Below are positions 16,233 to 60,513 of a DNA stretch of 64,000 nucleotides, piece after piece (the stretch's first letter is position 1; the number at the start of each line of letters is the position of its first letter). Origin of the DNA: Candidatus Moraniibacteriota bacterium (GTDB lineage Bacteria > Patescibacteriota > Minisyncoccia > Moranbacterales > UBA1568); NCBI GenBank assembly GCA_016699425.1, contig CP064975.1, positions 789,698 through 853,697 on the forward strand. Direction: 5' to 3'. Both the position numbers and the translations under genes were made by a program. Below the pieces are notes generated by a model, which was not told where the DNA came from, did no database searches, and saw nothing but the letters and a program-made list of their open reading frames with translations.

Positions 16233-16757
16233 CTATTTTCCCTTCTCATCCGGAATAAAGCGGAGTGCCGCACCATTCATACAATAGCGCCGTCCTGTCG
16301 GAGGCGGGCCGTCTTTGAAGACATGCCCGAGGTGACCACCAGCGGTCGACAAAACTTCCGTCCGCTCTATGAAAAAGCTGTCGTCGACACGCTCGATGAC
16401 CGCTTCGGGACGGATCGGACGAGTGAAGCTGGGCCAACCCGTACCCGAATCAAATTTGTCTTCCGAACGAAAAACTGGCTCGCCCGTATCAGCCGCGACA
16501 TACGTCCCGGATCGTTTCTCGGTATTCAGTGGGCTTGAAAACGGTGCTTCTGTCGCTCCCTCGCGCAGGATAGTGTACGCTTCCGGAGACAGTTTCCTGC
16601 GCCACTCATCTTCGGTCTGCCGTGGCTGATGTGAGAGCTCCTGCCGCACTTCCTGCGCCACCCGTCTAGTGTTCTGCCAATACCAGAACACTCCTCCCGC
16701 ACCGAGGCTGAGCAAAACCAATCCGACAATACAATATCTCATATATTTCAAAGACAC
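16233..16757 (-). CDS. msrB: peptide-methionine (R)-S-oxide reductase MsrB, membrane-anchored
   Basis: GWPSF...HLGHVFKDGPPPTGRRYCMN SelR motif incl. catalytic Cys. Confidence 0.9.
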   Translation of the reverse strand: MSLKYMRYCIVGLVLLSLGAGGVFWYWQNTRRVAQEVRQELSHQPRQTEDEWRRKLSPEAYTILREGATEAPFSSPLNTEKRSGTYVAADTGEPVFRSEDKFDSGTGWPSFTRPIRPEAVIERVDDSFFIERTEVLSTAGGHLGHVFKDGPPPTGRRYCMNGAALRFIPDEKGK

Positions 16758-19058: not shown

Positions 19059-19823
19059 TCAAAGGATTTCGTAGGTCAGTGTCACATTGACCGTCGTTTC
19101 GTTTGACCCTGGCTCGATCGATGGGGCCGGCACATTGGCAACCGCCGATTTCGCACTAAGCATATCCCCCTCTCCGCCAAAACCAAAGACATTCGGTGTT
19201 TCATAGATTGAAACAAGTTGTCCCATCTCAAACCCGGCGTCCGACGCGATCCGAATGGCTTTTGCCTTCGCTTTCTCTATGGCTTCCTTCCGTGCATCAG
19301 CCTTGGCTGCGTCTTCATCCTCAACCGTGAACGTGACTTGCGAAACACTGTTGGCACCCTTGGTCACCACGCCCGAGAGTAGGTCTCCGATCTTCTCGGT
19401 ATCGCGAACTGTGACACGAAGCGTCTGCGTCAACGAATAGCCACTGATACTCGGCTGCGGACAAGTTGAGAGCCCAGTGCAATTCGGATAGTCGTAACGT
19501 GGTGAGAGAGTGTATTCATCCGTTTTCAGATCTTTCTCCGCGACAGCTGACTCCTTGAGAAAGGCCGTAACAGCATTCATCTTTTCTGTATTCTTCGCCT
19601 GGACATCGACAACATCTTTCCCATCATCCGTCACGACCGAGACAGAGAACTTGGCGACATCCGGAGAAACCTCGATCCGACCCTCACCATCTGCTGAAAA
19701 AGTCCGAGTGGGATAGGTCTTGTCGACTGAGCGCGCGTATTCCACCGCAGCGAGGAGGGCAGCGATAGCGATCAGCAGCCAAGCAAGGGATTTGACTGAG
19801 TGGCGCGTGGATTCTTCGAACAT
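19059..19823 (-). CDS. SIMPL (DUF541) domain exported protein
   Basis: N-terminal TM, SIMPL-like core; last gene of efflux operon. Confidence 0.65.
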   Translation of the reverse strand: MFEESTRHSVKSLAWLLIAIAALLAAVEYARSVDKTYPTRTFSADGEGRIEVSPDVAKFSVSVVTDDGKDVVDVQAKNTEKMNAVTAFLKESAVAEKDLKTDEYTLSPRYDYPNCTGLSTCPQPSISGYSLTQTLRVTVRDTEKIGDLLSGVVTKGANSVSQVTFTVEDEDAAKADARKEAIEKAKAKAIRIASDAGFEMGQLVSIYETPNVFGFGGEGDMLSAKSAVANVPAPSIEPGSNETTVNVTLTYEIL

Positions 19824-19896: not shown

Positions 19897-20394
19897 CTAC
19901 ATCTGCGACTTCAATTGATCAATTGAGTCATTGAACGCTTTGGTCGTGAGGGAGGATCCGCCGACTCTATCGATGGCCGTGAGCTCAGTCAGTTTCTTCC
20001 CCTTCACCGCCGCCGACAACCCCTCAGCGAAGGCCAACTGTCGTTTCTTGGAAATATCGTTCGTGGCGAGCACTTCGGCCTTGGCATCGACAATCACCCC
20101 CGCTGCATCTACCGACAAGGTAAAGCCCACCTGATCCTCGCCCGATGGATTCTTATAACTCGCTTTTACCGAAACGTCCTTAGCTTTCACCGCGTCAGTC
20201 GCCAGTCCAGTGGAAGACTGCACGGATCCCTCCGGTGCTTTCGACGTTACAGTTTTAGTTGTATCACCTGACGTCGTGGTTATCGGTTTGGTAGCCTCAT
20301 TCCCCTTGGAGGGCATGAGGAACTTCACGGCTGCGACGAGCAGGGCAAGCGCCGCGACACCGAAAAAGAGCGTGCTTCTCTTTATTTGTGCCAT
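19897..20394 (-). CDS. membrane-anchored FMN-binding-domain-like protein (putative flavinylation substrate)
   Basis: C-terminus AIDRVGGSSLTTKAFNDSIDQL aligns to FMN_bind consensus VDAVSGATVTSKAV..A; paralog of 54384..54818. Confidence 0.5.
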   Translation of the reverse strand: MAQIKRSTLFFGVAALALLVAAVKFLMPSKGNEATKPITTTSGDTTKTVTSKAPEGSVQSSTGLATDAVKAKDVSVKASYKNPSGEDQVGFTLSVDAAGVIVDAKAEVLATNDISKKRQLAFAEGLSAAVKGKKLTELTAIDRVGGSSLTTKAFNDSIDQLKSQM

Positions 20395-20456: not shown

Positions 20457-21713
20457 TTATTCGTATCGCAAGGCCTCGATCGGATTCAGGCGAGCGGCCC
20501 GACTGGCTGGGTAATAGCCGAAAACGATGCCGATGGCTGCGGAGACGAGGAATGCCAGGATGATGGAATTTGTCGAAATCTCTGCGGCAATCCCATATCG
20601 ATTCATGACAGAGGCAATGACAAAGCCCCAGAAAATCCCGAAAAATCCGCCGAAGAATGTCAGTACGATCGCTTCGGCCAAGAACTGCAGTCGGATCTCT
20701 CGGCCGCGTGCGCCGATCGCTTTGCGAAGACCGATTTCCCGGGTCCGTTCGGTCACTGAGGTAAGCATCATATTCATGATACCGATGCCACCCACGACCA
20801 GTGAGATCCCCGCCACCGCACCGAGGAGCGTGGTGAAGGTACTCGTCACCGATGATGCTGTCGCGACGATATCCGCCTGGTTCAAGATCGAGAAATCCGC
20901 AGTCTCATCTGGAGCGATACCATGGGCCTCGAGCAGGGCCGCTTTTACATTCTCGGCCGCAGCGGTCATATCCTCGCCTGTGCGAATCTGGACATTGATA
21001 TTGGACAAGTATTTGTTGCCGATCAGAAACTGCTGGGCCGTCGAGACCGGGATATAAATCACGTCATCCGAACTGCCAAAGCCCGTCCCTCCGCGCGCCG
21101 CCGTCACACCGATGACAGTAAAGTCAACCGAGCCGATCCGAACCTTCTTGCCAATCGAACTGACGCCGTCGAACAGTTCCGTGACCACATCCGGCCCAAG
21201 AACAGCGACTTTTGCCAGTGATCGTTCATGAGTCTCCGTCAAAAAGGACCCTTCGGCCAACTTCACATTCCGAACGGTCGGATACTCACTCGTTACCCCC
21301 GTTACGCTCGTATTGGTATTTTTCCCCGCTGCCGTCACCTGTCGACTACGAGCCTGCGCTTCGACTGCAACGGCTTCGACCGCTGGAATCTTTTTGAGAT
21401 GAGTGACATCCGCCGTTGTCAGCGACTGAGCCGATCCTTGTGCCCCCTGCACCGGAGAGCCCGGTCCTTGCTGGGAACCAGGTCGGACGATGAGCAGGTT
21501 CGATCCGATGGCCTGGATGTTCTGTTGGATGGCGGTCTGCGCTCCCTGGCCGATCGCCACCATGACGATAACCGACGCGATCCCGATCACGATACCGAGC
21601 ACCGTGAGGCTCGAGCGTGATTTATTCACGGTGACCGCGGTATAGATTTCCTGCGTGAGATCGGTAAGATACATACGCGTATTATATTTTTTTTCGATTG
21701 CCTGTCCGGACAT
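20457..21713 (-). CDS. MacB-like ABC transporter permease (FtsX family)
   Basis: N-terminal TM, large periplasmic domain, C-terminal FtsX 3-TM bundle. Confidence 0.85.
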   Translation of the reverse strand: MSGQAIEKKYNTRMYLTDLTQEIYTAVTVNKSRSSLTVLGIVIGIASVIVMVAIGQGAQTAIQQNIQAIGSNLLIVRPGSQQGPGSPVQGAQGSAQSLTTADVTHLKKIPAVEAVAVEAQARSRQVTAAGKNTNTSVTGVTSEYPTVRNVKLAEGSFLTETHERSLAKVAVLGPDVVTELFDGVSSIGKKVRIGSVDFTVIGVTAARGGTGFGSSDDVIYIPVSTAQQFLIGNKYLSNINVQIRTGEDMTAAAENVKAALLEAHGIAPDETADFSILNQADIVATASSVTSTFTTLLGAVAGISLVVGGIGIMNMMLTSVTERTREIGLRKAIGARGREIRLQFLAEAIVLTFFGGFFGIFWGFVIASVMNRYGIAAEISTNSIILAFLVSAAIGIVFGYYPASRAARLNPIEALRYE

Positions 21714-22380
21714 CGCTCACGAGTTCGCCATCCCGAATCGAGAGGATACGGTCGGCATGAGCGGCAACTTCGTCTTCGTGAGTAATGAGAATGATAGTAT
21801 GCCCATGTTCACGATTGAGTCGCTCAAATGTTTCCAATACTTTTTCACCGGTCCGCGTGTCGAGGTTACCGGTCGGTTCATCAGCCAGGATGAGCGATGG
21901 ATTGTTGACGAGAGCCCGAGCGATGGCGACTCGCTGCATTTGCCCACCCGAAAGCTGATTGGAGCGATGTTTCCATCGAGCCTCATCGAGACCGACGGCT
22001 CGCAGCGCCTGAGCAACCCGTTCTGTCCGCTCCACTTGTGGCACTTCCAGATAGATGAGCGGCAGCATGACATTGCGGATGACCGTCGTGCGGGGCAGCA
22101 GATTGAATGACTGGAACACAAATCCGATTTTCTCCCGCCGGATAAGAGAAAGTTCGTCTTCAGAGAGCTTCGAGACATCCTGACCCTCAAAAAGATACGC
22201 GCCTGTTGTTGGTGTATCAAGCGCCCCCAGTATGTGCATGAGGGTCGATTTCCCGCTGCCACTCGGTCCCATGATAGAAACGAATTCCCCTTTGGCAACC
22301 GAGAATGAGACATCCTTCAACACGGTCGTCTGTTGATCACCGTTCATGTATGTCTTGGTGATACCGCGACACTCGAGCAT
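21682..22380 (-). CDS. ABC transporter ATP-binding protein (MacB/LolD-type)
   Basis: [36 protein letters not shown]; 32-nt overlap with permease. Confidence 0.9.
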
Positions 22381-22401
22381 ACTGATCGACGTTTCGTTAA
22401 A

Positions 22402-23610
22402 TTAACGTGGGAAGCCGCCCGAGCGATTACTGCCACCACCCGAACCCCGGAACAGATTGAGGATACTCCCTTGGCCAGCAGAAGTGCTACTGACTGAGGT
22501 GCTCACGGCAGCACCAGGGAGCTCAACCACGGTTCCTTCAGAAAGGCCGCTTACTATTTCAGTGACAGTGTCATTGGACAGTCCGGTGGAGATCTCCCGT
22601 TTCTCTCCAATCGACTGAGCTGTACTACTATTGGGCGTCTTCGGATTCTGATTCGCACCTCTATTAGTCTGCGGGCGGGTCCCATCCCCCATGACGGTCA
22701 CTACTGTCTTGCCGTCTGCGTTCGTGATAGCTGCATTCGGCACCACCAAGACACCAGATTTATCCGCCACACTGATATCAGCGGTTGCGCTCATGCCTGG
22801 CCGCAGCTCTCCCGGCTGCTGGTCGAGCTCGATTTCGGCCGTATACGAGACCACGTTCTGCGTCACCGTCCCGATAGTATCCAACTTCGACACCTTCCCC
22901 GAGATGGTGACATTGGGGAGCGCGACAAACGTCAGCTCGGCTGTGTTGCCCTCTTTCACCTTGGCCGCATCGACTTCATTGAGCTCGATGGAGACATGTA
23001 GTCGCTTCGTGATGACCGAGGCAAGGATACCAGTCTGGGATATCGTATCGCCGCTATCGACCGAAAGTCCCGTCACGATCCCATCAAAGGGCGCCCTGAT
23101 CGTATAATCCTGCAACTTATCGCGCATGTTCTGCAGGGCGATCTCGCTCTGCTTGACCGAGTCTGCGGCCAGCTGACGTTGGCGAGCACCATCCCGATCC
23201 AGTTTCGGATAGAGTTTATTCGTCTGTTTCGCCTTGATTTCCGTCTGATGCAAACTGAGCTCAGCGTTCACGACACTCCGACGGGCATCAGAATTGTCCA
23301 GGATAGCGATCACCTGACCCTTCGTCACTGCTTGATCATTTTGCACTGCCACTGTGGTCACTTCGATCGCGTCTCCCGCCACTACCGGTTTCAAATCAAC
23401 CTGAGAATCAGCTTCCACCTGGCCGCTCCCAGAGACGGTCACCTTCAAATCAGATCTCTCCACCCGTGCGGTACGGGGTGCGGACACAGTCGTATCTGTG
23501 CTGTTCGAACTTGATAGAAAAAAGTATCCACCATAAGCGACTATCCCGACAACAACCAGAGTCACAAACCAATGACTCCGCACATAGGATACTGACTGAG
23601 AAAGCTTCAT
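22402..23610 (-). CDS. efflux periplasmic adaptor (MacA/HlyD-like)
   Basis: N-terminal TM, coiled-coil, beta-barrel architecture. Confidence 0.75.
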   Translation of the reverse strand: MKLSQSVSYVRSHWFVTLVVVGIVAYGGYFFLSSSNSTDTTVSAPRTARVERSDLKVTVSGSGQVEADSQVDLKPVVAGDAIEVTTVAVQNDQAVTKGQVIAILDNSDARRSVVNAELSLHQTEIKAKQTNKLYPKLDRDGARQRQLAADSVKQSEIALQNMRDKLQDYTIRAPFDGIVTGLSVDSGDTISQTGILASVITKRLHVSIELNEVDAAKVKEGNTAELTFVALPNVTISGKVSKLDTIGTVTQNVVSYTAEIELDQQPGELRPGMSATADISVADKSGVLVVPNAAITNADGKTVVTVMGDGTRPQTNRGANQNPKTPNSSTAQSIGEKREISTGLSNDTVTEIVSGLSEGTVVELPGAAVSTSVSSTSAGQGSILNLFRGSGGGSNRSGGFPR

Positions 23611-50913: not shown

Positions 50914-51468
50914 CTACACTGCTGACAGTGAGACTCCAGCTGGCGGAGTTTGAGAATCCAGAGATTTGCTTTTGAGAAAGATCCAGACACCGGCCGCCGT
51001 GAGCCCAGTGAAGGCGATGAGAGACCAGTCAGCGATCGAAAGCCCGATGAGCGTCCAATCAACCGTCGCGCAATTCCCCGTCCCACCGAGCGCAAAGACG
51101 ACATCATCGATGAATGATCCGAAAGAGACCGCGCAACCCTCAGTGGCATCGTGGGCGACCGGAAAGCGCTGTAGTATGACATTGCGAAACGCTACCAGCC
51201 AGCCGAGGAAAGCAAAGACAGCAACCACCGCGCCGGACACGCGCACACTGAAGCGTGGCCACCAGGCCATGTATCCCACGAGTGCCGAGAGGCCGACCAA
51301 AGCATAGCCGAAACGCTGGACGATGCAGAGCGGACAGGGAGTGAGTCCGATCACCCGGACGAGAATCATGGCAAAGATGAGAAGTGCTGCGCAATACAGC
51401 GCGATGAGGAGGAGGAGCGTCTTCGGGTTACGGAGCGCTTCAAGCCCCTTCGAAACAATTCGGTTCAT
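50914..51468 (-). CDS. disulfide bond formation protein B-like (DsbB family)
   Basis: 4 TM, CPLC pair in first loop and second Cys pair (GCAV...GNCAT) in second loop. Confidence 0.7.
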   Translation of the reverse strand: MNRIVSKGLEALRNPKTLLLLIALYCAALLIFAMILVRVIGLTPCPLCIVQRFGYALVGLSALVGYMAWWPRFSVRVSGAVVAVFAFLGWLVAFRNVILQRFPVAHDATEGCAVSFGSFIDDVVFALGGTGNCATVDWTLIGLSIADWSLIAFTGLTAAGVWIFLKSKSLDSQTPPAGVSLSAV

Positions 51469-52111: not shown

Positions 52112-52342
52112 TTACATCGCCGACGCTGAGCTTTCAGACGCACACATGCGGCAATTCGCCTTGTGTGTCGCGAGCTCAAAGATCGCTGACGCACCGACGA
52201 GCACATATACCACCTTGGCAAGCATCGATGACATACCACCGAGGAGACTGGCGACGAGATCTGTCTCGAGCAATCCGACCGAGAGCCAGTTCAGCCCACC
52301 CACGACCAAGAGCAAAAACGCGACCATGTGAAGTTGTTTCAT
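52112..52342 (-). CDS. DUF378 family membrane protein
   Basis: VGGLNWLSVGL...YVLVGASAIFEL. Confidence 0.7.
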   Translation of the reverse strand: MKQLHMVAFLLLVVGGLNWLSVGLLETDLVASLLGGMSSMLAKVVYVLVGASAIFELATHKANCRMCASESSASAM

Positions 52343-52470: not shown

Positions 52471-52752
52471 TTATTTCTGACTAATTGTTCCTCGCTCACC
52501 TTTTCGCAGAGAAATATCGACATCCAGCAGTGTATCTCCGAGGTTTTTTTCGAGCAACGGTTTTAGATCATCGAGCGCTTTATTGTAAACGGAGTTGCCC
52601 ACGACTTGCAGGAAGAAATCCAGAATGTTTCCAGCAGCAACGACTCCTATCTTCTCATTTCGTTCTTCAGCGAAATAAGCAATTATCTCATCGATAACCA
52701 AGCGACGCCTTGCATCCGACAACACATCCCAATCGCGTTTTACCTCACCCAT
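52471..52752 (-). CDS. DUF2164 family protein
   Basis: family-level resemblance of N-terminal region. Confidence 0.55.
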   Translation of the reverse strand: MGEVKRDWDVLSDARRRLVIDEIIAYFAEERNEKIGVVAAGNILDFFLQVVGNSVYNKALDDLKPLLEKNLGDTLLDVDISLRKGERGTISQK

Positions 52753-52791: not shown

Positions 52792-53442
52792 CTACTTCGG
52801 CATCTTCAGGACATCGACGACGCGCCCATTGATGACGAAGTTGTCATCCGGCGTGAGAAAAATCGGCTGATGACGTTTGTCCGTCGACTCCGGCATGAGC
52901 GCGATAGTCCGACCGTCGACCGAGCGATAGGTTTTTACGGTGGCGAGCCCGTCGATCACGACCAGCACGCGGTCCCCGCTCTTGTAGTCCTTCACATCGG
53001 CGTCGACGAGGATGAAGTCACCGTTCTGAATTGTTTTCCCATTCACCTTAGCTCGATTCATGGACGTCCCCGATACCTGAACGGCAAAGACATTGTGATC
53101 CTTCACGAGTCGCTTCGAAACACGGAGATACCCCTCGACATACTGGTCCGCAAACATGGTCGCTGCACCAGCACTCGCCGCACCAAAGACCGGAATCTGG
53201 ACAAAGTTATCCGAGCTCACACCCTTCAGGAGGATACCCCGGTCCTCGCTCGTCCGCTCAATATAGCCCTTATTCTCGAGCGCATTCAGATAGAGGAAGA
53301 AACTTCTCAGACTTTTCAGATTGAGCCCGAGCTTGCCGCTCTCTTCTTTGATTTCACGCACGGTCGGCATTTCGCCGTGCTCGGTGAAGAACTGCTTGAT
53401 CGCCTGGAGCACAATCCGCTGCTTTTGGGTGAGGATTTCCAT
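52792..53442 (-). CDS. lexA: LexA repressor (wHTH + S24 peptidase)
   Basis: MEILTQKQRIVLQAIK wHTH; cleavage AG, Ser in VSGTSM, Lys in KVNGK; ATG 53442; TTGACA-N16-TATACT upstream (53471-53498, minus strand). Confidence 0.85.
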   Translation of the reverse strand: MEILTQKQRIVLQAIKQFFTEHGEMPTVREIKEESGKLGLNLKSLRSFFLYLNALENKGYIERTSEDRGILLKGVSSDNFVQIPVFGAASAGAATMFADQYVEGYLRVSKRLVKDHNVFAVQVSGTSMNRAKVNGKTIQNGDFILVDADVKDYKSGDRVLVVIDGLATVKTYRSVDGRTIALMPESTDKRHQPIFLTPDDNFVINGRVVDVLKMPK

Positions 53443-53509
53443 ATGTTTGTTTACTCTACTTACACTATAGAGTATACAACTGGTTCGGAGGGTGTCAACT
53501 GTCCAGAAT

Positions 53510-54373
53510 TTAGAACAACTCCCCCACCCAATCCGGACTAACGATCGTCTGGCCATCGGCGCGGAAGACAAGGTATGTCGCGGCCAGTGCCCTGGCAAGC
53601 GTCGGAAATTGCTCCGGCGGAGCGAAGAAGAGTCCCGAGGTCATGCAGTCGGCCGCCCATGCATCTGGTGCGACCGCCGCGCAGCCGACGACTGTCTCGA
53701 CGCTTTTCCGTGCGCCCATATCGACGAGGTGATGCCACTTCCCAAACCGCCGCCGGAAGCTGTCAGAAACAGCCAGTCCTCGGTTGCAAAGCTCGACGAT
53801 CCCTGCTGCGACATCGGGTTTCCCGGGATACTCGATCGCCACGCGCCATGGCTGGCCATCGGTCTTGGTCGTCGCAACCATATCGCCCCCTCCATCGACG
53901 ATGAAATGTCCGTACCCCGCGGTACGGATGAGATCGGCAATCCGATCGATACAGTACCCCTTGCCGATGCCACCGAGATCAAAGGCCACCGGACCATCAA
54001 GTGTGAGTACTTCACCGTCAATTGACCATATGGGCAATGCCTCGCCGTATTCGACTGGTCGCACACCTGACTGTGCACCATAGCCTGCACCCTCGAGCAC
54101 GCCACCGACAATCGGATCATAGACACCACCCGTCAGCTGGCGCAAAAGCGCGGCTCGTTCGAGGAGCCGGGCGAACTCTGATGAAACTGGGTAGCTGCCG
54201 GCGGCCACTTCACGATACGCATTCACTTCCGATCCCGGGAGAAAGCGCGAAAAGCGGGACTCGAAGTCCCGCGCATAGCCGATAATCGTTTCATCCAAAC
54301 GCTCTGGGAGAGACTCGGCATCGATCACGATCGACCAGGCCGTCCCCAGTCCCTGGAAATCGATTGTCTGCAT
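53510..54373 (-). CDS. apbE: FAD:protein FMN transferase (ApbE family), no signal peptide
   Basis: DLGGIGKGY and downstream ApbE blocks; N-terminus MQTIDFQGLGTAW lacks signal/lipobox. Confidence 0.8.
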   Translation of the reverse strand: MQTIDFQGLGTAWSIVIDAESLPERLDETIIGYARDFESRFSRFLPGSEVNAYREVAAGSYPVSSEFARLLERAALLRQLTGGVYDPIVGGVLEGAGYGAQSGVRPVEYGEALPIWSIDGEVLTLDGPVAFDLGGIGKGYCIDRIADLIRTAGYGHFIVDGGGDMVATTKTDGQPWRVAIEYPGKPDVAAGIVELCNRGLAVSDSFRRRFGKWHHLVDMGARKSVETVVGCAAVAPDAWAADCMTSGLFFAPPEQFPTLARALAATYLVFRADGQTIVSPDWVGELF

Positions 54374-54383
54374 TGCTTATCTG

Positions 54384-54818
54384 TTAGAGCTGGCTCTTCA
54401 GCTTGTCGATGACGCTATTGAACGCATCGGTTGTCATCGATGATTTGCCGATCCGGTCCACTGCTGTGAGTTCGGAAAGTTTCTTGCCCTTAATGACCGC
54501 TGCAAGTCCCTGGGCGAACTCGATCTGATGCTCATCGGCTTCATTCGTCTCGACCGCTACTTCACGGACATCGGTGATGACACCTTCTGCATCCAGGACA
54601 AGCGTAAACCGCACACTGTCATACCCGTCATTCGGCACGGGGTAGCCCACCTCGGCACTCACCTCTCGCGGCTTATCAACAGCGACCTTGGTCACCGCTA
54701 TCGGCGTTTCCTCGGTGCGCGCGGCTGGGAGAAGCTTCAACGTGTACCGACAGTACACAAACGCCGTGAGCACGAGCACGACTGCGATAGCGATGATCCC
54801 CTTGGGTATCTTTTGCAT
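54384..54818 (-). CDS. membrane-anchored FMN-binding-domain-like protein, paralog of 19897..20394
   Basis: C-terminus AVDRIGKSSMTTDAFNSVIDKLKSQL aligns to FMN_bind consensus; N-terminal TM. Confidence 0.55.
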   Translation of the reverse strand: MQKIPKGIIAIAVVLVLTAFVYCRYTLKLLPAARTEETPIAVTKVAVDKPREVSAEVGYPVPNDGYDSVRFTLVLDAEGVITDVREVAVETNEADEHQIEFAQGLAAVIKGKKLSELTAVDRIGKSSMTTDAFNSVIDKLKSQL

Positions 54819-54930: not shown

Positions 54931-55839
54931 TTACTTCCAATATACCTGAGACGTCGTCACGATTTCCTTCCACGGCCCGTCCGGCACGGCGTCCGCGACA
55001 ACAAAGCGCCAATCGACGATATCGATATCCTTCAGTCCCAGACACTGACTCGCAGCCGGGGAAAGGTCGAGACCGGCGTGCTTATTGGTCTTGCTCTCGG
55101 GAGTGGCTGTGCCAAAGACATAGGCGCTGTCGTTTTCCTTGAAGGGTCCCACGTCTTGCCACTGAGCGTAGCAGGTTTTCTCACCCTTGGTCACTTCGAT
55201 CCACCGGTTCTTGAGCATGGATTCATCATCCTTCCACGTCCGGTCCTTGGCCCAGGGGATGATCGAAGCAGCGTCTTTCTTACGCTTTCCCTTGGAATCG
55301 AAGTCATTGTACGGCAAAGCAAAATAGAATGGATTCTCCTGTGGCGTAAACTTGGCCGGGAAGTTGCCATTCCGTTTGTCCGGATCGTCTACACCCCCAA
55401 AATGTTTGACCCATTTCTCATCCCACGCACTCGGGAGATTGGAGATATCCTTATTGTCGTCCCCCGCCTCCTCGCCCACCCAGAAAAGTGTCGTCGTCAC
55501 ATCCTGATGGAGAGGGTACGGCGGGTCCTCTGCAACTGTGTCGTCTCCAATTCCTTCAGGTTTCGGCAGAGCCGTCTCGGCCGGTGTGACCAATGAGGGT
55601 GCCATCTCGACAGGACTCATGGGGGTGTCTATGTTCTCTTCCGTCAGCGTCTCTTCCGGTGTCGCGCTTCCAACGTTCGCTCCAACAGAAAGCACCGCTT
55701 CTCCTCCTTGAGGGGCTGTCTCACTCTCCGTATCTTCCGAACTCGAAATCTTTTTCCCGACAGCGACAAACGCGAGGGACGTCCCAATGATGATGGAACT
55801 CAACAACATGAGTACTCCCACGCGATGTAAACTTCTCAT
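54931..55839 (-). CDS. secreted protein with RlpA-like double-psi beta-barrel domain (putative)
   Basis: signal/TM then ...WIEVTKGEKTCYAQWQDVGPF...AGLDLSPAASQCLGL resembles DPBB/RlpA. Confidence 0.45.
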   Translation of the reverse strand: MRSLHRVGVLMLLSSIIIGTSLAFVAVGKKISSSEDTESETAPQGGEAVLSVGANVGSATPEETLTEENIDTPMSPVEMAPSLVTPAETALPKPEGIGDDTVAEDPPYPLHQDVTTTLFWVGEEAGDDNKDISNLPSAWDEKWVKHFGGVDDPDKRNGNFPAKFTPQENPFYFALPYNDFDSKGKRKKDAASIIPWAKDRTWKDDESMLKNRWIEVTKGEKTCYAQWQDVGPFKENDSAYVFGTATPESKTNKHAGLDLSPAASQCLGLKDIDIVDWRFVVADAVPDGPWKEIVTTSQVYWK

Positions 55840-56347: not shown

Positions 56348-56517
56348 GATCGAGAAAATATTCTCGAACTCCAGGGTAACAGACCATCGCCGATCGGTCA
56401 ATCCCGCAGGATTCTGACACCACCTAAAAAGCTGATACAATATCCTTGACTGAGAATACTGCAAGCCTGCGGAATAACCGGGTGTGTGATTTCTTCACTT
56501 ACATAATCAGCATCGAT

Positions 56518-57465
56518 ATGAATAAACCACTTGTCGTAGCCGGTGTTGTTCTTACCCTCTTCTCGCTCACCGCGCTCGCTCTCGCCTGGTGGTCAGCCTA
56601 TCGGGTGACACAAATACAGAAAACAATGAACACGGCTGACAAAAATCCAACACTCGATTCACACACGCCGTCAGGCGATGACTCACCCACACCTGTTCTT
56701 GATCAATCGCAAGATGCTCTGGTAATGACCAAGCCAATAACAGATGAAAAATATACTCTCGTAACGCTCGGTGACCTCTCGGTCAATCGGCAAGCCTACA
56801 ATGGCCACCCGATTGAAATCATCGACTATATGGACACGGGACCCCTTCCCTCACCCAATGGGACGAAAAAGTATACTGAGTACATCAAAATCCTCTCGCC
56901 AGATTATGTCCGAGGGCTTGACCTGGTCTATCCTCCATTCACGACCGATGATCCGGCTCGCTATGCCCGTGTGGCGCCGCTCTACCGCGGCGAGCAACGA
57001 GTGAGCATCAAGGGGAAATTTGTCATCGACCTCATGAAGACACCGACGCGTCCGATAGAAAACGACGTCATCGTGGTTGATCACTTCGACATTCTCCCCT
57101 TCCCAGAGCCGGAAAAGGGAGTGATCACGAAAGAAATTTTCTCCCAGATGATCGAGGATGGCACAATCGCATCGCTGAATCGGAAACGCATCACCTATGA
57201 AGGCGAGTACGGCTCCGGTTTCGAAGTGTCGCTCCTCGATAAACTGATTTGGGCGAACTTCATTGAAACCGAAATGGGCAATGCCGTCGATGAACTCGAA
57301 CGATTCATGCGTACTCACTCCGAAATGAAGAAAGAAGATGGGCAAATGAAGTCCAAAGTCCGAGTCACCGGTGTGCTCTATGCCACCCCCGGACAGCGTT
57401 ATGGCCACCTCGGACGCACCCTATATCAGATGATGGTCGACACGGTTGTTTTCCTCGAACAGTAA
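56518..57465 (+). CDS. membrane-anchored hypothetical protein
   Basis: start at MNKPLVVAGVVLTLF (56518). Confidence 0.55.
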   Translation: MNKPLVVAGVVLTLFSLTALALAWWSAYRVTQIQKTMNTADKNPTLDSHTPSGDDSPTPVLDQSQDALVMTKPITDEKYTLVTLGDLSVNRQAYNGHPIEIIDYMDTGPLPSPNGTKKYTEYIKILSPDYVRGLDLVYPPFTTDDPARYARVAPLYRGEQRVSIKGKFVIDLMKTPTRPIENDVIVVDHFDILPFPEPEKGVITKEIFSQMIEDGTIASLNRKRITYEGEYGSGFEVSLLDKLIWANFIETEMGNAVDELERFMRTHSEMKKEDGQMKSKVRVTGVLYATPGQRYGHLGRTLYQMMVDTVVFLEQ

Positions 57466-58625: not shown

Positions 58626-59198
58626 ATGGAAACAGCCACCGCCCTCGCCAAAATCCAAGCCTTCTATGAAAAGAGGTGGCGCATGCCGACCGTGCGCGAA
58701 GTCATGTCGCTCATCCGCACTCGATCGATGAAGCAGACAACCGCCCTCATCGAGGGACTCGTCGAGTCCGGTGCGATCGAACGCGACAAGAATGGCAAAC
58801 TCCTCCCGAGTCACCTCTTCGGCAGCATCCGTAAGCTCGGACTCGTCGAAGCTGGTTTCCCCTCGCCCGCCGAAGAGGAGCTCCTCGATACTCTGACGCT
58901 CGACGAGTGGCTCATCCGCCGGCGCGAAGCGACTTACATGCTCGAGATCAAGGGCGAATCGATGATCAATGCCGGTATCCGACCCGGCGACACCGCCCTC
59001 GTCGAACGCGGCCGCGAACCAAAACATGGTGACATCGTCATCGCAGAGGTCGACGGCAAGTGGACGATGAAGTACTACCACGTCGAGTCGCGAGGACGTA
59101 TCGCGCTCGTCCCAGCCAATCCGAAATTCCCGACCATCTACCCGCAAGAAGAACTCCACATTGAGGCAATCGTCACGGCCATCATCCGGAAATACTAA
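58626..59198 (+). CDS. second LexA-like repressor (wHTH + S24 peptidase)
   Basis: IKGESMINAGI (Ser) and KHGDIVIAEVDGKWTMKYY (Lys); start 58626 after AAGGA; 58593 alternative. Confidence 0.8.
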   Translation: METATALAKIQAFYEKRWRMPTVREVMSLIRTRSMKQTTALIEGLVESGAIERDKNGKLLPSHLFGSIRKLGLVEAGFPSPAEEELLDTLTLDEWLIRRREATYMLEIKGESMINAGIRPGDTALVERGREPKHGDIVIAEVDGKWTMKYYHVESRGRIALVPANPKFPTIYPQEELHIEAIVTAIIRKY

Positions 59199-59202
59199 CC
59201 CT

Positions 59203-60513
59203 ATGTCCGCCCCCATCGTTCTGGGGAGATTCCCCCGTGCCATCCTCCACATCGATGGTGATGCTTTTTTCGCGTCATGCGAGCAAGCAAGGAATCCCGA
59301 ACTCCGCGGAAAGCCGGTCATCTGCGGAGCCGAGCGCGGCATCGCCGCGTCGATGAGCTATGAAGCCAAAGCCAAGGGCGTCACCCGTGCCATGCGCCTC
59401 TTCGAAATAAAGAAACTCTGTCCGGACGCGGTCGTCCTCCCCTCCGACTACGAGACGTATTCGCTCCTCTCCAAACGCTTCTACGAAGTCGTCCGCCGCT
59501 ACACATCCGATGTCGAGGAATACGGCATCGACGAATGCTTTGCCGATATCACCGGTTTGCAGCGACCGCACAAGAAAAGCTATGCCGCGATTGCCGCAGC
59601 GATCCAGTCGGACCTCCAGCGCGAGCTCGGCTTCACCTTTTCCATCGGCCTCGCCTCGACCAAAGTCCTCGCCAAGATCGGCTCGAAGTGGGCGAAGCCC
59701 CATGGCCTGACCGCTATCCCGAACAAATATATCCACCGCTACCTCGAGACGCACCCCGCGGGAAATGTCTGGGGCATCGGTCCGCAGACGACCGCGCTCC
59801 TCCAGAAATTCGGTATTCATACCGCGCTCGACTTCGCCCACCGCGACGAAGCCTGGGTGAAACACTACTGCTCGAAACCGTTCCAAGAGATCTGGCACGA
59901 GCTCCGGGGAAAGAGCGTCATGCCGCTCGCGACCGCGCCACGGACCGACCACTCCTCGGTGCAAAAGATGAAGACCTTCACCCCGCCGTCAAACGACCCG
60001 CGCTTCGTCTTTGCCCAGCTCGCGAAAAACATCGAGAGCGCCTGCATGCGCGCGCGGCAGTACCGGCTCGAGGCCAAGCGGGTGTACATCCTGCTCCGGA
60101 CGCAATCGTTCGAGCATCACTCGACCGAGCTCACGCTCTCGCGGCCGACCAATTTCGCCCACGAACTCCTCGACATCGCCCGTCCGGCCTTCGCCGAACT
60201 CTTCCGCCCCGGCACCTTCTACCGCGCGACCATGGTCACGCTCGCCGAGCTCACCGTCCCCGAATCGCAGCCTGATCTCTTCGGTGGATCACTCCGAGTG
60301 GACAACTATCGCCGGCTCTACGAGGGCATCGACCAGGTCCGCGCCAAGTACGGCAAGCACACCATCCATTTCGGCTCGTCATTCATGGCGCACGACGGCG
60401 CACAGCACACGGGCGACCGCGCCGACACCCCCGAGCGCCAGCGCCATCTCCTCAAGGGCGAGACCAAACGCCGCCGCCTCGGCATCCCCATGTTCACCGC
60501 CGAACTCTCCTAA
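59203..60513 (+). CDS. dinB: Y-family DNA polymerase (DinB/UmuC-like)
   Basis: ILHIDGDAFFASCE and GIDECFADITG catalytic motifs; starts 4 nt after LexA-like stop. Confidence 0.85.
   Translation: MSAPIVLGRFPRAILHIDGDAFFASCEQARNPELRGKPVICGAERGIAASMSYEAKAKGVTRAMRLFEIKKLCPDAVVLPSDYETYSLLSKRFYEVVRRYTSDVEEYGIDECFADITGLQRPHKKSYAAIAAAIQSDLQRELGFTFSIGLASTKVLAKIGSKWAKPHGLTAIPNKYIHRYLETHPAGNVWGIGPQTTALLQKFGIHTALDFAHRDEAWVKHYCSKPFQEIWHELRGKSVMPLATAPRTDHSSVQKMKTFTPPSNDPRFVFAQLAKNIESACMRARQYRLEAKRVYILLRTQSFEHHSTELTLSRPTNFAHELLDIARPAFAELFRPGTFYRATMVTLAELTVPESQPDLFGGSLRVDNYRRLYEGIDQVRAKYGKHTIHFGSSFMAHDGAQHTGDRADTPERQRHLLKGETKRRRLGIPMFTAELS

Follow-up and report, generated by a model that had tools for sequence, protein, structure and literature searches.

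Rnf, Nqr, NosR and flavin-based extracellular electron transfer all depend on flavinylation by ApbE, and the textbook ApbE is an exported lipoprotein enzyme that works outside the membrane. A basic question is then where flavinylation would take place when the enzyme carries no export signal and its presumed substrate is anchored in the membrane. This question is posed by a gene pair in a 64,000-nucleotide stretch of a Candidatus Moraniibacteriota genome (assembly GCA_016699425.1, contig CP064975.1, forward-strand positions 789,698 to 853,697; hereafter the window). In this pair, apbE (53510..54373, minus strand) encodes a 287-residue flavin adenine dinucleotide (FAD):protein flavin mononucleotide (FMN) transferase with neither signal peptide nor lipobox, and it starts 10 nucleotides past the stop of a same-strand gene (54384..54818, minus strand) for a 144-residue single-pass membrane protein that is its putative substrate. 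A paralog of the small protein is encoded at 19897..20394, also on the minus strand. The original prediction for this locus had asked where flavinylation occurs; the question is a legitimate one, and the mismatch between leaderless enzyme and anchored substrate belongs to a whole bacterial radiation rather than to a single gene.

Among the closest described systems, RnfG and NqrC are served by a periplasmic lipoprotein ApbE. The window enzyme differs in that it lacks a lipoprotein signal, and the small-protein family differs in a motif core of G-[KGT]-S instead of [ST]-G-A and in a domain too divergent for the Pfam FMN_bind profile. No Rnf or Nqr subunit genes (RnfD, NqrB and the like) were seen beside the pair in the part of the window's open reading frames that was scanned, the neighbors being LexA, DUF378, DUF2164, DsbB and unknowns, and no canonical D..[ST]GA[ST] motif, which would be expected in RnfD or NqrB, turned up in any reading frame of the window. 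The flavin-based extracellular electron transfer system of Listeria (PplA) resembles the locus in its monoderm-type cell, its surface-tethered FMN_bind domains with a dedicated ApbE, its occasional multiplication of FMN_bind copies (seven, three and two in the relatives P0121, P0236 and P0248 of the window protein) and a plausible role in passing cytosolic reducing power to the outside. However, the Listeria FmnB is an exported lipoprotein that needs FAD export (PMC9973259), whereas the ApbE described here has no leader, and around the pair no gene for Ndh2, EetA/B, DmkA or an FmnA-like protein was seen. In Klebsiella pneumoniae, a signal-peptide-free ApbE likewise serves an FMN_bind-type site, but its substrate is a soluble, cytoplasmic, multidomain NADH:fumarate reductase (PMC12052999), and here the substrate would be a small membrane-anchored or secreted protein without a catalytic domain. 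The best structural and sequence matches are the stand-alone or multi-flavinylated FMN-bind1/2 proteins (3O6U, 8P2A, 8P2B; Huang et al., mSystems 2024, PMC11334425), which share the small, "non-descript" FMN_bind domains occurring singly or as repeats. Those proteins carry the canonical [ST]GA[ST] and are described as extracytosolic, whereas the present family carries G-x-S-[ST], goes with a leaderless ApbE and is found in the candidate phyla radiation.

The Pfam ApbE profile (PF02424) matches the 287-residue protein with an E-value of 7.5e-39 and a score of 134.3 bits (cut-off 25.6), and the match runs from residue 9 to 263 and covers profile positions 1-258 of 266, such that the domain is complete. 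Solved FAD:protein FMN transferase structures in the PDB match the protein with E 1.5e-16. Alignment with E. coli ApbE/Ftp shows the GKGY motif to be kept and reveals invariant residues that include the catalytic H215, the GG of the FAD/Mg site (G162-G163), D242, S203, S205, R207, G137/G139/Y140 and D143. The ApbE-family identity given in the original prediction is thereby borne out, and the comparisons support an intact flavin transferase with predicted activity.

The absence of a leader is evident at both the DNA and the protein level. E. coli ApbE is longer by about 33 N-terminal residues, which comprise the lipoprotein signal and a linker, and the window enzyme lacks these; since position 1 of the Pfam profile already falls at residue 9, there is no space for a leader in the 287-residue protein. 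The DNA before the gene reads ...TAA CAG ATA AGC A|ATG, which places an in-frame TAA two codons 5' of the ATG, so the reading frame cannot be extended upstream. When 41 distinct orthologous reading frames from related loci were measured from the earliest start codon downstream of the preceding stop, they spanned 286-313 residues and none had a hydrophobic N-terminus, the maximum 19-residue Kyte-Doolittle mean being 1.2 or less compared with 1.71 in the E. coli ApbE lipoprotein signal. Neither a Tat-like (twin-arginine translocation) N-terminus nor an internal segment of transmembrane-grade hydrophobicity (maximum Kyte-Doolittle mean 1.5) was found among these 41 proteins. The closest ApbE (P0260, 99% identity) comes from a Moraniibacteriota metagenome-assembled genome (MAG), the N-terminus is the same in four aligned orthologs, and in loci L058-L062 the ApbE start is preceded by an in-frame stop 0-12 codons upstream. 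Could the missing signal peptide nonetheless be an artefact of a mis-called start, a frameshift or an upstream sequencing error, as the original prediction had allowed? The upstream TAA and the 10-nucleotide gap to the preceding gene, the start of the Pfam match, the recurrence of the same short N-terminus in 41 independent assemblies and the equally short length of the best 120 of 623 ApbE homolog clusters (269-304 residues) leave this explanation almost no probability, and these comparisons exclude a start mis-call or sequencing error as the cause. The claim that the enzyme has no signal sequence and cannot be extended stands, and it is quite likely that ApbE is truly cytoplasmic.

In both the 144-residue protein and its 165-residue paralog, a single hydrophobic helix at the N-terminus is joined by a linker to a C-terminal domain of about 95 residues, which is modeled by AlphaFold2 with a predicted local distance difference test score (pLDDT) above 90. 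The two share 50% identity across 105 residues (BLASTP E 7e-32), with the C-terminal block that had been reported from the letters alone, and the three reading frames, all on the minus strand, are 287, 144 and 165 residues long. In the 144-residue protein the anchor occupies approximately residues 7-23 (54750..54800, minus strand; GIIAIAVVLVLTAFVYC), lacks an AxA-type cleavage site and lies within a modeled helix at residues 6-28, while the divergent FMN_bind domain covers approximately residues 50-144. In the paralog the anchor is followed by a Ser/Thr/Lys-rich linker and then the same domain.

Within this domain lies a flavinylation-like motif, D121-R-I-G-K-S-S127-M-T-T (54429..54458, minus strand), in which Ser127 (codon 54438-54440) is the predicted FMN acceptor, and a six-frame scan places its counterpart in the paralog, D142-R-V-G-G-S-S148-L-T-T, at 19942..19971 (minus strand). 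Taking D-x-x-[ST]-G-A-[ST] as the reference motif, the window motif aligns column by column with 8p2a, a solved FMN-binding domain that reads D-A-V-S-G-A-T-Y-T-S there, with Ser127 at the position of the flavinylated Thr, and also matches D-Q-F-T-G-A-T-I-T-P of E. coli RsxG. Across 305 family instances, position 121 is Asp in 93%, position 124 Gly in 91%, position 126 Ser in 87% or Ala in 13%, and the acceptor position 127 Ser in 84% or Thr in 15%, so that Ser/Thr accounts for 99%; the following positions 129 (Thr, 99%), 130 (Thr, 98%), 132 (Ala, 97%) and 133 (Phe, 99%) are nearly fixed. The core in the two window paralogs reads G-K-S-S and G-G-S-S in place of [ST]-G-A-[ST], and distant members of the family carry the canonical D-R-V-S-G-A-S-L-T-T.

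Profile searches for FMN_bind gave a divided answer. Neither window small protein matches any Pfam or NCBIfam family, FMN_bind (PF04205) included, even at E-values up to 10, which, taken literally, is the outcome that the original prediction had named as refuting it. Their relatives do match: 12 of 32 close homologs have weak Pfam FMN_bind matches (best E 1e-4). A family profile run through a full HMMER search reached 1,372 representative clusters (50% identity) at E <=1e-3, among them the two-domain relatives P0248 (E 3e-16) and P0250 (E 3e-15), which clear the Pfam FMN_bind gathering score of 22 with 38.4 and 31.9 bits, respectively. With a domain-only profile that includes distant members, the top two PDB sequence matches are 8p2a and 8p2b, with D-r-v-g-g-a-S lying on D-A-V-S-G-A-T. 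The full-length family profile returned from PDB sequences only spurious ribosomal S26 and flagellin matches (E ~0.06 or weaker), hhalign of the family against E. coli RsxG gave a probability of 4% with only the beta-sheet and GKK region aligned, and Foldseek against the PDB yielded no match under E 0.01, with IscU and RnfG level. An IscU-like reading of the domain was rejected, as the family has no conserved Cys. The weak matches in relatives, together with transitive homology, support the assignment of the window small proteins to a divergent FMN_bind branch, and with the 8p2a/8p2b alignment they indicate that the residue-for-residue motif alignment of the original prediction, with Ser for the flavinylated Thr, was right.

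The pairing itself was examined in a sample of 51 non-redundant related loci with 57 FMN_bind-like small genes. In 43 of the 57 cases apbE is the next gene on the same strand, at -44 to +22 nucleotides, and ten further copies precede a SIMPL gene, either directly or with DUF378 in between. The family is one of Candidatus Moraniibacteriota and other Patescibacteria, and the pair is kept where the remaining synteny is gone, as in Kaiserbacteria-type loci, in L060, where the small protein carries a canonical SGAS motif, and in the 25%-GC genome of L059 (GCA_054921735.1). It also persists on two UGA-recoded contigs read with genetic code 25 (UGA = Gly): L058 encodes a seven-repeat protein followed by a 284-residue ApbE, and L062 a three-repeat protein, a one-repeat protein and a 290-residue ApbE. 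On both (L058:3250-7125 and L062:5001-7928), UGA stands where ApbE has conserved Gly (GK*Y, DPKT*), which points to code 25; the database translations of P0121 and P0236 read UGA as Trp and thus show W where the family has G. Many contigs with the module (those of L013, L019, L020, L022 and others, as well as P0017 and P0357) are titled "uncultured Bdellovibrionales", "Pseudomonadales" or "Undibacterium sp.", labels that probably reflect mis-assigned MAG taxonomy.

It is quite likely that the adjacent genes form an enzyme-substrate pair and that the small protein is flavinylated. An alternative hypothesis is that the small proteins carry no flavin and that their fold, a degenerate one resembling FMN_bind, IscU or PepSY, serves some other purpose, perhaps together with SIMPL, while ApbE has another target or acts as a FAD pyrophosphatase in flavin salvage. 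Several of the results above count against flavinylation and toward this alternative: the window motif departs from the canon at three core positions (G-K-S versus [ST]-G-A), the window proteins have no Pfam match, Foldseek ranks IscU with RnfG, and the ten SIMPL-linked copies are not tied to ApbE; in addition, JGI calls one homolog "YpmB", and Treponema Ftp, which belongs to the ApbE family, has been presented as a metal-dependent protein of flavin trafficking (PMC4436053). However, apbE adjacency is near-universal across very divergent lineages, the acceptor Ser/Thr is retained and flanked by invariant D, T-T and A-F, the motif passes by degrees into canonical S-G-A-S within the family, and the conserved Cys that IscU needs is absent. 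Moreover, substitutions of the motif Asp, Gly and Ala lower flavinylation without abolishing it (review PMC12052999). We therefore judge a flavin-free role unlikely and retain the small protein as the probable substrate.

On which side of the membrane would its FMN_bind domain lie? Topology was judged from hydropathy and flanking charges in 239 family members, and signal-peptide calls are readings of N-terminal sequences rather than predictor output. The net-charge difference across the helix favors an N-in/C-out orientation in 189 of the 239 members, and several relatives bear features that point the same way. P0121 combines a hydrophobic, signal-peptide-like N-terminus with seven repeats on Pro/Thr-rich linkers, P0236 joins a signal-peptide-like N-terminus to three repeats and an InlB B-repeat domain, and P0248, with two FMN_bind copies, carries seven Lys on the N-terminal side of its helix and two basic residues on the other. 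In P0259, P0256 and L056 (5479-6390), an FMN_bind-like domain is fused behind a polytopic membrane domain, and a six-helix model obeying the positive-inside rule places it outside. On this basis the FMN_bind domain probably faces outwards.

The opposite orientation, N-out/C-in, would place the domain, its flavinylation and its function in the cytoplasm and remove the compartment problem altogether. It would sit well with a leaderless ApbE and has a precedent in the cytoplasmic ApbE and cytoplasmic FMN_bind substrate of Klebsiella (PMC12052999), and the charges near the helix weigh against an outward-facing domain: the window protein has K3 and K6 before the helix and R24, K28 and R34 after it, its clade thus having two Lys/Arg before the helix and three within 15 residues after (family means 2.0 and 1.8), and a basic residue directly follows the helix in 127 of the 239 members. 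With flanks so nearly equal, topology is not fixed by the positive-inside rule alone. Against N-out/C-in stand the overall net charge, the relatives with signal-peptide-like N-termini, Pro/Thr linkers or an InlB B-repeat, the fusions that put the domain outside, the clearly N-in charge pattern of P0248, which is partnered with an outward-directed NOX-like reductase, and the long Ser/Thr-rich linker of the window paralog, which is typical of envelope proteins. A cytoplasmic domain is accordingly considered unlikely. With an outward-facing domain, the compartment mismatch between cytosolic ApbE and extracytosolic substrate is, as judged from these comparisons, most probably real and general in Patescibacteria.

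One way to reconcile the two compartments is flavinylation outside the cell membrane, either by a leaderless ApbE exported through an unrecognized route, such as leaderless secretion or piggy-backing, or by a second, exported ApbE encoded elsewhere. The outside is the canonical site at which ApbE acts on FMN_bind domains (PMC8238504, PMC12052999), and the 64 kb in view leave scope for a second enzyme, which also weighs against cytoplasmic flavinylation. However, the 41 orthologs show neither a hydrophobic nor a Tat-like N-terminus and no internal segment above a mean of 1.5, the leaderless apbE is the copy adjoining the substrate gene in every lineage examined, and a pair of arginines occurs in the first 14 residues of only 21 of 243 family N-terminal regions, so that hitch-hiking on a Tat substrate would not be general. 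External flavinylation thus appears improbable. The same arginine count led us to reject, as a general route, the export of an already folded flavoprotein by Tat; the idea had been prompted by the [RK]-R-N-L-I-I of one clade, and searching the literature for Tat in Patescibacteria gave no useful information. The window small proteins have no RR, and each has a single N-terminal membrane helix.

The combination of a leaderless ApbE and an outward-facing FMN_bind domain makes flavinylation before or during membrane insertion the likeliest order of events. According to a review (PMC12052999), a linear tag of seven residues is all that ApbE needs, and some ApbEs are cytosolic. We propose that ApbE, with FAD and Mg2+, would recognize this short linear motif in the cytoplasm and link FMN to the 144-residue protein through a phosphoester bond at Ser127, and likewise to the paralog at Ser148, before or during Sec-dependent insertion. 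The flavinylated domain, tethered to the membrane, would then relay electrons outside the cytosol as RnfG, NqrC or PplA do. Extracytosolic flavinylation in Listeria relies on an energy-coupling factor (ECF) transporter that moves flavin out of the cytosol (PMC9973259), and cytoplasmic flavinylation would remove the need for FAD export. We infer each part of this scheme: that flavinylation takes place, that the domain lies outside, that modification comes before or during export and that the domain relays electrons. Two further points speak against it: the literature searched holds no precedent for flavinylation ahead of Sec export, and the surroundings of the pair in the window yielded no membrane partner for electron transfer. 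The whole chain, from cytoplasmic flavinylation through export to a surface electron relay, is thus offered tentatively, and the broader proposition that Patescibacteria build surface flavoproteins by a reversed route, with cytoplasmic ApbE acting first, translocation second and FAD export unnecessary, is put forward with somewhat greater reserve.

A possible membrane partner comes from the related loci. The membrane domain of the P0259, P0256 and L056 fusions is homologous (E 1e-27 to 1e-33) to a separate 167-residue protein encoded beside the pair in Kaiserbacteria-type loci, which provides a Rosetta-stone link to a membrane partner. This polytopic protein, which belongs to no Pfam family, is a candidate transmembrane electron-transfer partner; a homolog of the six-helix partner was sought in the window and none was found. 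The Kaiserbacteria-type loci concerned (L006, L035, L041, L043, L044 and L052, ~4.6-5.9 kb) encode three small polytopic proteins of 106, ~150 and 167 residues with conserved His, divergent to the pair, and a FAD_binding_4 oxidase and a Flavodoxin_2/FMN_red protein also recur there. In the L059 operon (L059:87-3379), a NOX/ferric-reductase-type protein (Ferric_reduct, FAD_binding_8, NAD_binding_1) is followed by a leaderless 296-residue ApbE and then by a membrane protein with two FMN_bind copies, and judging by these domains the operon looks like a complete path for electrons from NAD(P)H to the cell surface.

How much of this is new? In NCBI records the enzyme is already called "FAD:protein FMN transferase" and one small-protein homolog "FMN-binding protein", an ApbE with an FMN_bind substrate is already known, and leaderless ApbEs are known for soluble cytoplasmic reductases (PMC12052999), so the gene identities are not new. 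What differs is the systematic pairing of a leaderless ApbE with membrane-anchored or secreted substrates, together with a substrate family whose motif core departs from the canon and escapes Pfam; the clade-wide compartment mismatch and its implications are new. The location differs as well: a 2021 eLife genomic survey, which discarded genes without a signal peptide, found extracytosolic flavinylation strikingly under-represented in the candidate phyla radiation (PMC8238504), and the literature searched yielded no paper tying ApbE to Patescibacteria or this radiation. That under-representation could be in part an artefact, because ApbE is leaderless here and the substrate family is too divergent for Pfam. 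If attachment does precede export, the sequence in which a Sec substrate acquires a covalent cofactor would be new, and such a route would be economical for organisms that must scavenge flavins. It would also provide fermentative, respiration-poor symbionts with an electron route to the cell surface, of which the L059 operon is the clearest case, and the 1,372 clusters of the divergent FMN_bind family would conceal widespread extracytosolic electron transfer in a radiation reported to be almost without it.

The remaining genes around the pair vary in their relation to it. Directly downstream of apbE lies lexA (52792-53442, minus strand), which has its own near-consensus promoter, TTGACA-16-TATACT (53471-53498, minus strand; 11 of 12 matches). 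A lexA homolog is nearby in 23 related loci, and its position next to apbE is probably a matter of synteny rather than function. Farther downstream are genes for DUF2164 (52471-52752), DUF378 (52112-52342) and DsbB (50914-51468), all on the minus strand. LexA, DUF378 and DsbB were considered as parts of the system and rejected, since their recurrence in the survey is confined to loci of the Moranbacteria type and lexA has its own promoter. Just upstream of the small gene, proteins of 302 residues (54931-55839, minus strand) and 339 residues (56446-57465, plus strand), each with an N-terminal anchor and no Pfam family, are kept only in the closest relatives (L010, L011, L013) and so fall outside the core module. 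A gene for a Y-family polymerase (IMS) is present at 59161-60513.

The paralog has a different companion, a SIMPL/DUF541 gene directly downstream (19059..19823, minus strand; Pfam SIMPL E 2.4e-48) whose product has an N-terminal anchor, and its ortholog in L037 shows the same order, the second FMN_bind-like gene and then SIMPL. SIMPL/DUF541 is the "oxidative stress defense" family of E. coli YggE. The gene recurs beside FMN_bind-like genes or apbE in 18 related loci and in several gene orders (L018, L026, L028, L029, L034, L037, L038, L048 and others), and the two flavinylation surveys searched contain no SIMPL-flavinylation link. A methionine sulfoxide reductase, MsrB (SelR), is encoded 2.3 kb from the paralog-SIMPL pair (16233-16757, minus strand) and is probably extracytoplasmic given its N-terminal hydrophobic anchor; MsrB and SIMPL together hint at the repair of oxidative damage in the envelope. 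Immediately upstream of the paralog lies a MacB-type ATP-binding cassette (ABC) exporter set (20457-23610, minus strand) comprising a MacB_PCD/FtsX permease, a putative ABC ATPase recognized by inspection of its sequence, and an HlyD-like membrane-fusion adaptor, the last of which is unusual in a presumed monoderm organism.

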